64,000 nt of DNA from contig SUPR01000002.1 in assembly GCA_005191425.1 (NCBI GenBank), positions 2,453 to 66,452 of the forward strand, written 5' to 3'. Positions 10,556 to 56,885 of the stretch are shown here, in pieces; positions within the stretch are counted from its first letter, which is position 1; every line of letters starts with the position of its first letter. The notes under the pieces were generated by a model. That model was not told where the DNA came from, made no database searches, and worked only from the letters and a program-made list of their open reading frames with translations. Both the position numbers and the translations under genes were made by a program. The stretch comes from Candidatus Helarchaeota ASGARD archaeon Hel_GB_B. GTDB lineage: Archaea; Asgardarchaeota; Lokiarchaeia; Helarchaeales; HEL-GB-B.

Positions 10556-10767
10556 TTTTAATACGTCATTGGAGAGTTGTTATAAAATAAAATAATATTT
10601 TATATTATTACAATTATAATATTGACCTTAATTTTTAATCATTATGAGAAAAAGGGAGAAATTTGAATTTTTAATTTGAGTAAAATTATTAAGTAAATAA
10701 GAGTTGGACTTATGATTTTTTGAAAGAATTTATTTGTTAATATTTGAAATTAACAAATTAAGTAATA

Positions 10768-10907
10768 TGGGCTCGCTGGGACTTGAACCCAGGAGCTCCC
10801 GCGTTCCGTACATTTAACCGATATAAAATACCCCGGGCGGGAATCATAATCCATTCTAGCTTATATAGAATTAATCTATATTATGAAAGGTGCTAGACCA
10901 CGAGCCC
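10768..10907 (-). tRNA. Intron-containing tRNA (~140 nt); it has a canonical acceptor stem and T-arm, and apparently two introns (D-loop and anticodon region); the isotype is unresolved
   Basis: On the minus strand the 5' end GGGCTCG pairs with the 3' CGAGCCC plus discriminator A. The T-arm is CTGGG-TTCAAGT-CCCAG. About 66 nt are extra relative to a 74-nt tRNA. The anticodon stem CCCGC/GCGGG encloses 33 nt. Confidence 0.55.
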
Positions 10908-11066
10908 AAGTTTAGATTTTATCGTAGACTAATTTATTTAATCTGGTGATAAAAATTAAATTACCAGTTTTTAAAAATTTAATGTTTATAAAATCATCAT
11001 AGAGATAAAAGATATATTTAAACTTGGTTTTTTTAACCGATTTAAAATATTTCCGGATGGTATAAA

Positions 11067-34199: not shown

Positions 34200-34330
34200 T
34201 GGACCGGCCGGGAATTTCGTCTAAGTCCACAAAGAAATCCAAACGAATTTCATTTTTTTAGAGGACTAAATTTCGAACCCGGGGCCTCCAGATTGCAAGT
34301 CTGACGATCTACCAACTGATCTACCGGCCC
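34200..34330 (-). tRNA. tRNA-Ala (anticodon UGC) interrupted by a ~58-nt intron inside the T-loop (between positions 59/60)
   Basis: Minus strand reads GGGCCGG-TA-GATC-AGTTGGTA-GATC-G-TCAGA-CTTGCAA-TCTGG-AGGCC-CCGGG-TTCGAA[58 nt]T-CCCGG-CCGGTCC-A. The G3:U70 pair is the alanine identity element. The intron contains a 5-bp internal helix (AGTCC/GGACT). Confidence 0.75.
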
Positions 34331-54256: not shown

Positions 54257-56002
54257 TTATAAAATTGAGCCACATTCCGGACAAATTCGTGCAAATAAGG
54301 TTATAGGCGCCTTACAATGTGGACAAACTTTTAAAGGCTTTTTACATTCAGGACAAATTTTCTCCATCATAAAAACCACACTTTTACAATGTGGACAAAT
54401 AGCCTTAGCACCAATTATAGTTGGTTTAGTTGGCTTTTCTTCCAATTCAGTTTTTTCAATTTCTTTAATTTTTAAATAATCATCTAGGCTAGATTCTTCA
54501 ATTGTTTTTTGCTCGTCAATAGATTTTAACTCTTCTTGCTCTTTTTGCGAATCTGTTGACACAGCTTGTTGTTTTTCTTCAGTTTTAGCTAGAACATCTG
54601 TTAATTTTGATAGTGTTTCATCTAATGGCTTTATTGTTTCATTTACTTGTTCTTGTACTTCTGCTTTTGGAATTTCTTTTTCTTCAGTAATTGGCATGGC
54701 TATTGGCATTTCTGGCGATTTTGTAACAATTGGCTCGGCTTTTTCTTGTGTTTCAATACCCATTAAATCACTTGCTTTTGCAGCTTCAAATTTCTCCGGC
54801 TGCTCTACTACTTCTGATTGTTCAATCGGTTCAGTCTCATTCATAATATTCATTAAATCATTAAATAATTCTTCATTTACTTCTTCAGCTACCATCACTT
54901 CAACATCTGATCCACTCGCTGGTTTCATCGGTATATCCAAGACTTCTTGCTTAGAAATTTCTTCGGGGATAGGGGCTGCTTTTGGTGCGCTTGGAATTTC
55001 TTCGGGGATAGGGGCTGCTTTTGGTGCGCTTGGAATTTCTTCAAGAATTGATGTAATATTTGATTTATGTGATTGTTCTGTTTCTGGTGTAATTGATGTG
55101 GTAGGTTGCACTAAAGGTGGGGGATTAGACAAAGGAACTTGATTTGTAGCAGATGGCGGAATAAAAGGCGAAATTGGATCTGTATTTTTTAATAAATTGT
55201 TTATATCATCATATATTTCATCCATTGTAGGCTGTTTTATAGTTATTGGTGGTACAACAGGGCTTGGGGCTTCAGGTGTCTTTGGTATCTCTTTTTCTGA
55301 AACTTTTAATTCAGCATGAGTAATTTTAGGAGCTTCTTTTTTAACAACCTCCTCTTTTTTTGGTTCTTTTTTAGCTTGTTCTCCCTCCATTACAATAATT
55401 CTTTTTAATTTTATCCAACCTTTTTTCTGATATTTTTTAATTATTTCATCGACTTTTAATCTTGGAAGATTTGTTTTTTCACAAATATCTTCTATTGTAT
55501 TTTTACCATCAATTAAATGAATTACTTTTGCTTCAATCATAGAAAATTTCTTTCTTTCAATTCCATCCAATTTAATAGGTACTCTATATGCTGTCTTCTC
55601 AACTTGTTTAGATTTTCCTTTTTCTAATTTCATATCAATAAATTTGTCAATATAATCTGAATATTTGTGCATGCGGCCTTTAAATGCCAGTAATTGACCT
55701 ACTGGGCCACTTTCTGAATAAAGGACTATCATAGCTTTTTCTGAAAGTTTAAAAAATCCGATATTTACACCTGAAAGAGGTAAGCTATGTTCTCCAACAT
55801 CTAGGACGCTAAAATTTCCTGCGGCAAATGATTTTATAAAATCAGCATATTTTTCTTCAAGAACTGGATCAATATACTTCAAATTATTATTATTATCAAT
55901 AATCCCGATTTGTATTGGGTTTGATAATAATTTTCTCATATCATTTGCGATTTTTTTTACAATATCTTCGAGTGAATTAATATTTTCGATTTCCTCGCTC
56001 AT
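54257..56002 (-). CDS. Multidomain protein: N-terminal Roadblock/LC7-like domain, winged-helix segment, long Pro/Glu-rich low-complexity linker with tandem repeats, C-terminal double Zn-ribbon
   Basis: N-terminal IQIGIIDNNNNLKYID...NIGFFKLSEKAMIVLYSESGPVGQLL fits the Roadblock/LC7 alternating pattern. The C-terminus has CPHCKS...CPECKKPLKVCPHCKAP...CPECGS. Confidence 0.45.
   Translation of the reverse strand: MSEEIENINSLEDIVKKIANDMRKLLSNPIQIGIIDNNNNLKYIDPVLEEKYADFIKSFAAGNFSVLDVGEHSLPLSGVNIGFFKLSEKAMIVLYSESGPVGQLLAFKGRMHKYSDYIDKFIDMKLEKGKSKQVEKTAYRVPIKLDGIERKKFSMIEAKVIHLIDGKNTIEDICEKTNLPRLKVDEIIKKYQKKGWIKLKRIIVMEGEQAKKEPKKEEVVKKEAPKITHAELKVSEKEIPKTPEAPSPVVPPITIKQPTMDEIYDDINNLLKNTDPISPFIPPSATNQVPLSNPPPLVQPTTSITPETEQSHKSNITSILEEIPSAPKAAPIPEEIPSAPKAAPIPEEISKQEVLDIPMKPASGSDVEVMVAEEVNEELFNDLMNIMNETEPIEQSEVVEQPEKFEAAKASDLMGIETQEKAEPIVTKSPEMPIAMPITEEKEIPKAEVQEQVNETIKPLDETLSKLTDVLAKTEEKQQAVSTDSQKEQEELKSIDEQKTIEESSLDDYLKIKEIEKTELEEKPTKPTIIGAKAICPHCKSVVFMMEKICPECKKPLKVCPHCKAPITLFARICPECGSIL
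54953..55043 (-). repeat. 39-bp tandem repeat (about 2.3 copies) inside the CDS, encoding EEIPSAPKAAPIP units
   Basis: Direct repeat CTTCGGGGATAGGGGCTGCTTTTGGTGCGCTTGGAATTT visible on the plus strand. Confidence 0.6.
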
Positions 56003-56783: not shown

Positions 56784-56885
56784 GGGCCGGTGATCTAGAA
56801 GCAATATATCGGCAATATTATTGGAAATCGGTATGATATCGCCCTCACGCGGCGAAAATCGTGGGTTCAATTCCCACCCGGCCCA
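56784..56885 (+). tRNA. tRNA-Val (anticodon CAC) interrupted by a ~29-nt intron in the D-loop
   Basis: GGGCCGG-TG-ATCT-AG[~29 nt]TC-GGTA-TGAT-A-TCGCC-CTCACGC-GGCGA-AAATC-GTGGG-TTCAATT-CCCAC-CCGGCCC-A. All stems pair. 102 nt total against a 73-nt mature length. Confidence 0.75.

Follow-up and report, generated by a model that had tools for sequence, protein, structure and literature searches.

A tRNA-Pro(GGG) gene with two introns and a clade-conserved cytidine at position 33 in Asgard archaea

The stretch of DNA analysed here, referred to as the window throughout, comprises 64,000 nucleotides with a GC content of about 29% and harbours an interrupted gene for tRNA-Pro(GGG) (Table 1). The genes that surround it are archaeal and encode a proteasome alpha subunit, a KaiC-like ATPase with a V4R domain, UMP kinase, GcvH and URO-D. 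The UMP kinase, whose gene lies 160 nt from the tRNA, shares 64–70% identity with proteins that bear a Helarchaeota or Lokiarchaeota label and no more than 47% with any other protein, and the host is therefore an Asgard archaeon. The 140 nt of the tRNA gene recur without change in nine contigs of independent assemblies; this identity shows that the gene is not an assembly error, and no comparative signal comes from those copies.

The plus-strand text contains GGGACTTGAACCC, which is the reverse complement of the T-arm, and the gene is therefore located on the minus strand. Read in that direction the precursor is GGGCUCG UG GUCU AGCA(37 nt)UGGAUUA UGAU U CCCGC CCGGGG(27 nt)C GCGGG AGCUC CUGGG UUCAAGU CCCAG CGAGCCC A, and CCA is not encoded. 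The acceptor stem (GGGCUCG/CGAGCCC), the T-arm (CUGGG-UUCAAGU-CCCAG) and the anticodon stem (CCCGC/GCGGG), all three of them named in a first-pass annotation made from the letters alone, are plainly seen. That annotation had delimited the 140-nt gene exactly, with no strand stated, and had placed two introns in it, one in the D-loop and one in the anticodon loop. Both are borne out by bulge-helix-bulge (BHB) motifs at the two sites and by a spliced tRNA that ARAGORN accepts; their sizes required correction, from about 37 and about 26 of some 66 extra nucleotides to 64, made up of a 37-nt D-loop intron and a 27-nt intron at 37/38. The spliced tRNA is 76 nt long.

Table 1. Parts of the tRNA-Pro(GGG) gene and their positions in the window
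Feature	Position in window	Strand	Basis
Whole pre-tRNA-Pro(GGG) gene, 140 nt	10768..10907	-	sequence; ARAGORN on the spliced form; orthologues
G1	10907	-	
Exon 1: acceptor 5' strand, U8 G9, D-stem 5' strand, D-loop to A17 (GGGCUCGUGGUCUAGCA)	10891..10907	-	junction fixed by the intron-less alleles L036/L037, reading GTCTAGCA joined to TGGATT
Intron 1, D-loop, between A17 and U17a (our own numbering), 37 nt	10854..10890	-	BHB scans; covariation; missing in L036/L037
Exon 2: D-loop remainder UGGAUUA, D-stem 3' strand, U26, CCCGC, C32 C33 G34 G35 G36 G37	10831..10853	-	sequence; alignment of mature orthologues
C33	10835	-	exon 2
Anticodon GGG	10834..10832	-	exon 2
Intron 2, canonical 37/38 site, 27 nt	10804..10830	-	BHB; fold of the isolated arm; ARAGORN -i
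Exon 3: C38, GCGGG, variable region AGCUC, CUGGG-UUCAAGU-CCCAG, CGAGCCC, A73	10768..10803	-	sequence; cloverleaf pair counts
Discriminator A73	10768	-	

The motif ATAAAAT is found 10–23 nt upstream of the mature 5' end (window about 10917–10923, minus strand) and is common to six of the eight orthologues examined, namely the window, L011, L032, L034, L035 and L036. It is too near to be the TATA box of a start site upstream of the tRNA and may represent a chance occurrence in AT-rich DNA, part of a leader or a promoter element.

The gene escapes the standard finders in its unspliced form. On the raw window neither ARAGORN nor Rfam at the gathering threshold reports anything at the locus, and a permissive Rfam search of the locus gave sub-threshold matches only, none of them to the tRNA model. 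When unspliced forms were scored, the threshold of that model (RF00005, gathering score 29 bits) was reached neither by the gene of the window nor by the intron-bearing orthologues nor by the single-intron alleles L036 and L037. The weak plus-strand matches at the locus (HPnc0260, snR75 and others) are all below threshold and were rejected. That to HPnc0260, a bacterial antisense RNA, covers window positions 10677–10801 on the plus strand and scores 36 bits, the gathering score being 59; since it is mainly the antisense T-arm that supports the alignment, the match is regarded as an artefact. Removal of the introns gives a different outcome: ARAGORN calls the spliced 76-nt product tRNA-Pro(ggg), and with the option -i, after removal of the D-loop intron alone, it calls Pro(ggg) with a 27-nt intron.

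The spliced anticodon loop is C32-C33-G34-G35-G36-G37-C38 (CCGGGGC), the same loop that the first-pass annotation had derived from a canonical 37/38 splice, with C33 where elongator tRNAs canonically have U33. The anticodon GGG and the proline identity proposed there are upheld both by the ARAGORN call and by G34 G35 G36 G37, which are invariant in 10 of 10 orthologues. The acceptor-end features used by archaeal ProRS are A73 and G1-C72; these are present in the window and in eight orthologues, L039 having G73. The likeness of the D-arm to that of tRNA-Val, which had also been pointed out, has no bearing on identity, the D-arm being identical across all close tRNA-Pro(GGG) orthologues. In the 36 long ORFs of the window CCU and CCC together account for 243 of 583 proline codons (42%), and a tRNA-Pro with G34 is thus in demand.

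Counting that of the window, ten distinct versions of the gene were available for comparison, the nine others from Asgard contigs labelled Helarchaeota or Lokiarchaeota. For most of these orthologues the contig was retrieved by way of the UMP kinase gene, and the tRNA was located upstream of that gene; relatives keep the order ATPase, gap, UMP kinase, GcvH. A scan of a genome collection with a T-arm/acceptor pattern yielded L016, identical to L011, as its sole relevant locus, the other matches being unrelated Arg and Phe tRNAs of Bathyarchaeia and Woesearchaeota. L032 was likewise the sole relevant locus from a metagenome scan with an exon-2 pattern. The contig of L040 stops before the tRNA position, and an outgroup contig reached via P0013 had neither the synteny nor the tRNA. 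Spliced in silico, the orthologues are all called tRNA-Pro(GGG) by ARAGORN.

The number of introns varies among these relatives, with one in L036 and L037, two in most and three in L039, yet the mature sequence of the window is that of L036 and L037 even though the introns differ. Mean pairwise identity is 0.91 for exons, 0.57–0.59 for introns and 0.64–0.66 for flanks. Over the seven distinct mature sequences 95% of the cloverleaf is paired; five double changes are compensatory, and the sole unpaired position is an invariant U13.U22. In L010 the acceptor, anticodon and T stems all contain compensated changes, and L039 has different stems throughout in addition to its third intron and G73. To judge from these comparisons of sequence, mature tRNA-Pro(GGG) is under strong purifying selection. 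The additional intron of L039 (1-345, minus strand) is 34 nt long, is located in the T-loop at about 58/59 and has a perfect BHB.

This level of conservation bears on the suspicion, raised at first pass, that the tRNA is defective. A decaying or redundant pseudogene, inactivated by a change from U33 to C and with another tRNA-Pro decoding in its place, would not be expected to keep all its cloverleaf helices through five compensatory changes, to have the same mature sequence as alleles with different introns, or to be so much better conserved in its exons than in its introns. Both BHB motifs are moreover kept by covariation, as described below, and C33 itself is shared by 8 of 10 orthologues whose neighbouring kinase is just 59–70% identical. 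We consider such decay highly improbable, even when it is granted that C33 departs from a near-universal nucleotide, that the anticodon BHB of the window is imperfect, that the gene is missed by standard tRNA finders and that the survey of tRNA genes covered the 64-kb window.

BHB motifs were sought by scanning all combinations of 5' and 3' sites. The geometry required a helix of 4 bp, each strand of which is followed on its 3' side by a bulge of 3 nt, with the cut after the second nucleotide of the bulge. For the D-loop of the window precursor the scan gave x=17/y=54, where the central helix is fully paired (C12-G, U13-A, A14-U and G15-C), the bulges are CA/C and AA/U (a slash marks the cut), the inner helix has 3 bp and the outer helix consists of a single U11.G pair. 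The motif is a relaxed form of the BHB. All intron-bearing orthologues use this site, with inner helices that differ in sequence. In the hand-built, fixed-length alignments on which all BHB pair counts given here rest, with coordinates anchored on exon boundaries, 83% of cells are paired in seven orthologues as against 16–49% in slid controls, and 4 of 4 inner-helix pairs have changes on both sides. L036 and L037 are without the D-loop intron and read GUCUAGCA followed directly by UGGAUU, which is the predicted spliced product of the window. The D-loop junction is therefore fixed by intron-less alleles whose mature sequence is identical to that of the window, and the boundaries suggested at first pass (AG/CACC...CTAG/AATGG) prove to be 2 nt off by the BHB as well as by these alleles.

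At the second site the partners of nucleotides 32–35 are the four nucleotides located just before the last two of the intron. This agrees with the published definition of the BHB, by which the first two anticodon nucleotides belong to the central helix and pair with the intron (PMC4090602). The central helix of the window has C32-G102, C33-G101 (window 10807) and G34-C100, with a G35.A99 mismatch, so that three of four positions are paired, and the bulges, GG/U and AA/C, are of 3 nt each. The anticodon stem serves as outer helix, its 5 bp becoming 7 bp when the pairs 26:44 and 25:45 are added, and the inner helix is weak (A-U, U.G, a mismatch, U-A, U-A). Across nine orthologues the anticodon stem, central helix and inner helix together have 94% of cells paired versus 19–49% in slid controls; six pairs are changed on both sides, and the covariation score was reached by none of 500 shuffles. 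When the anticodon arm of the window is folded alone, the minimum free energy fold is the proposed BHB architecture, with a stability no greater than that of shuffled sequence (z = -0.11). The minimum free energy fold of the whole precursor, which is without the anticodon stem, was set aside for the model. The orthologues with U33 fold into a textbook hBHBh', and the C33 forms adopt the same architecture with a G.A mismatch. G35 is opposite A in seven of eight C33 forms, and both U33 forms have four full central pairs.

The first-pass annotation had also allowed that the splice position in the anticodon loop might be non-canonical. Excision elsewhere could leave a loop such as CCGGAAC, whose anticodon would be GGA (Ser), or one that has U33. 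A stem of 5 bp and a loop of 7 nt do result from several registers, and ARAGORN -i gives Ser(gga) for some orthologues after removal of the D-loop intron. We enumerated the 18 possible 27-nt excisions that leave a 17-nt arm, among which 14 keep at least four of five stem pairs and all 14 give C33. U33 is given by no register, and a shifted splice site therefore cannot restore it. In the GGA registers the would-be nucleotide 37 is the last intron base, which is A, G, U or C depending on the orthologue, where tRNAs have a purine, and the long variable arm of tRNA-Ser is absent. BHB geometry and covariation place the cuts at 37/38, and to excision elsewhere in the loop we attach almost no credence. 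Two excisions within the anticodon region (for example with UUAAA as a mini-exon and a Leu anticodon) were judged by eye and rejected for want of a long variable arm and of BHB support.

With the cuts at 37/38, eight of the ten distinct orthologues have C33 (the window, L014, L035, L036, L037, L034, L010 and L039), a set that includes L010 and L039, the most divergent tRNA bodies, and L011/L016 and L032 have U33. The window and seven other distinct orthologues thus depart from the U33 of the canonical elongator loop in a tRNA that is otherwise intact, and, as in natural C33 elongators, this C33 is a genome-encoded state conserved between species. The pair between nucleotide 33 and the intron is C-G in seven and U-A in two of the nine orthologues counted, and L039, the eighth C33 form, also has G as intron partner. 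Given C33 in 8 of 10 and an intron partner that covaries with it (G with C33, A with U33), we conclude that C33 is encoded and selected and that position 33 evolves within a BHB helix; of the possibilities raised at first pass, an atypical tRNA is the one upheld. In a neighbour-joining tree of the UMP kinases, which is too poorly resolved for counting switches between U and C, the two lineages with U33 do not appear to be sisters. Our literature search found no paper on C33 in tRNA-Pro or in Asgard archaea, and a clade-conserved C33 that covaries with an intron in tRNA-Pro(GGG) is apparently both uncommon and unreported. Nucleotides 32 and 38 are C/C in all orthologues except L034, which has U/U.

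C-to-U editing of archaeal tRNA exists at position 8 in Methanopyrus; to our knowledge, no editing at position 33 is known. C33 could be a genomic state only, from which a cytidine deaminase makes U33 in the precursor or in the mature tRNA, and U33 is indeed nearly universal in elongator tRNAs (PMC5041475). L014 and L032, whose mature sequences differ solely at position 33, indicate that U33 is compatible with this tRNA body. The covariation of the C33-G intron pair as a Watson-Crick pair is, however, simply explained without editing, and a natural C33 elongator works without editing in yeast (PMC13492127), so that a deaminase acting on this tRNA seems to us very unlikely. A wider proposition is that the main CCU/CCC tRNA of the clade has lost U33, and that this goes together either with efficient decoding by a heavily used C33 elongator, C33 being fixed because nucleotide 33 is also a BHB pair, or with an undescribed C-to-U editing that restores U33 after splicing. 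We hold this proposition to be unlikely; if fixation by BHB pairing were true, intron architecture would shape a position that is universally conserved in mature tRNA.

The reading we favour, and regard as probable, is that of a functional two-intron tRNA-Pro(GGG) gene with BHB splicing at A17/U17a and G37/C38, in which C33 is tolerated and not edited. Transcription of the minus strand would yield the 140-nt precursor, where each intron would form a bulge-helix-bulge motif with the adjoining exon sequence. The archaeal splicing endonuclease would cut in both 3-nt bulges and an RNA ligase would join the exons, giving the mature 76-nt tRNA, to which CCA would then be added and which would presumably be aminoacylated with proline. 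The GGG anticodon would be expected to read CCC and CCU, and C33, genome-encoded and kept in most of the clade, would be tolerated in the mature tRNA, unmodified and unedited, in the manner of the few other natural C33 elongators. The neighbouring nucleotide may be affected as well: TrmJ of S. acidocaldarius fails on a U33C substrate (PMC4105751), and Cm32 may therefore be missing from C33 tRNA-Pro(GGG) if a similar enzyme is used.

As a BHB-type archaeal tRNA gene the locus has a canonical spliced cloverleaf, a D-loop site of the relaxed form and a 37/38 site with three of four pairs and a G.A mismatch. Multi-intron tRNA genes and non-canonical introns are well documented in the Thermoproteales, among them a three-intron tRNA-Pro(UGG) in Pyrobaculum islandicum (PMC4090602). 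In some Asgard genomes introns are found in 92–95% of tRNA genes, often several per gene (PMC11291895; the supplementary tables of that paper hold no tRNA sequences), and Asgard archaea are reported to have an (alpha-beta)2 EndA with an L1 loop and broad substrate specificity (PMC5829648). Like the multi-intron genes of Thermoproteales and of Atabeyarchaeia/Freyarchaeia, the gene described here has one intron at 37/38 and an extra one elsewhere in the body, its introns are set in a 4-bp helix with two 3-nt bulges or a relaxed version of it, and a broad-specificity (alpha-beta)2 endonuclease is reported for the lineage. It differs from them in belonging to a Helarchaeota/Lokiarchaeota-like lineage, in being the GGG isoacceptor, in having its extra intron in the D-loop after nucleotide 17, and in the presence of one, two or three introns among close orthologues. 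The gene is thus an ordinary representative of the disrupted tRNA genes of Asgard archaea, with C33 in addition.

For C33 the closest likeness is to tRNA-Cys(GCA) of the Sulfolobales, also an archaeal elongator with G34 and a clade-conserved C33, which could not be isolated in the study that describes it (PMC7668247). That tRNA carries another amino acid in another phylum, and the G27.U43 that accompanies its C33 is not seen here. In Saccharomyces cerevisiae tRNA-Leu(GAG) is a natural elongator with G34 and C33, and the exchange of C33 for U33 has minimal effect (PMC13492127); the yeast tRNA is non-essential, since tRNA-Leu(UAG) can read the same codon. Unlike the archaeal tRNA-Pro, it is eukaryotic, and its position 33 has no covarying partner in a BHB. 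C33 is also seen in many eukaryotic initiator tRNAs, so that conservation across a whole tRNA class is a shared trait (PMC5041475), but the initiator tRNA-Met has the anticodon CAU and, in contrast to an elongator, enters the P site directly.

The clade-conserved C33 tRNA-Pro(GGG) is a well-supported natural addition to the very few elongator tRNAs that lack U33 and probably serves about 40% of proline codons. That position 33 is at the same time a BHB pair covarying with the intron provides a concrete coupling between the processing structure of a pre-tRNA and its mature anticodon loop.

The other two tRNA genes of the window are also interrupted at non-canonical sites, and both have U33. The gene for tRNA-Ala(UGC) (window 34200–34330, minus strand) has G3.U70 and the loop CUUGCAA; its 58-nt intron (34214–34271) lies in the T-loop at 59/60 within a perfect BHB (central helix 4 bp, outer 5 bp, inner 5 bp). 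Rfam scores this gene at 31.7 bits only by skipping the T-arm, and ARAGORN misses it. The gene for tRNA-Val(CAC) (window 56784–56885, plus strand; loop CUCACGC) has an insertion of about 26–30 nt in the D-loop, for which several BHB registers give a product acceptable to ARAGORN, and the raw gene is missed by ARAGORN and Rfam alike. With three of three tRNA genes of a 64-kb window missed or partly detected by these programs, the tRNA sets of such Asgard genomes will be badly under-called unless the prediction is BHB-aware. Between the two loci, at window positions 54956–55042, is a perfect tandem duplication with a 39-nt unit (AATTTCTTCGGGGATAGGGGCTGCTTTTGGTGCGCTTGG) in 2.2 copies that are 100% identical, and this duplication is GC-rich relative to its surroundings.
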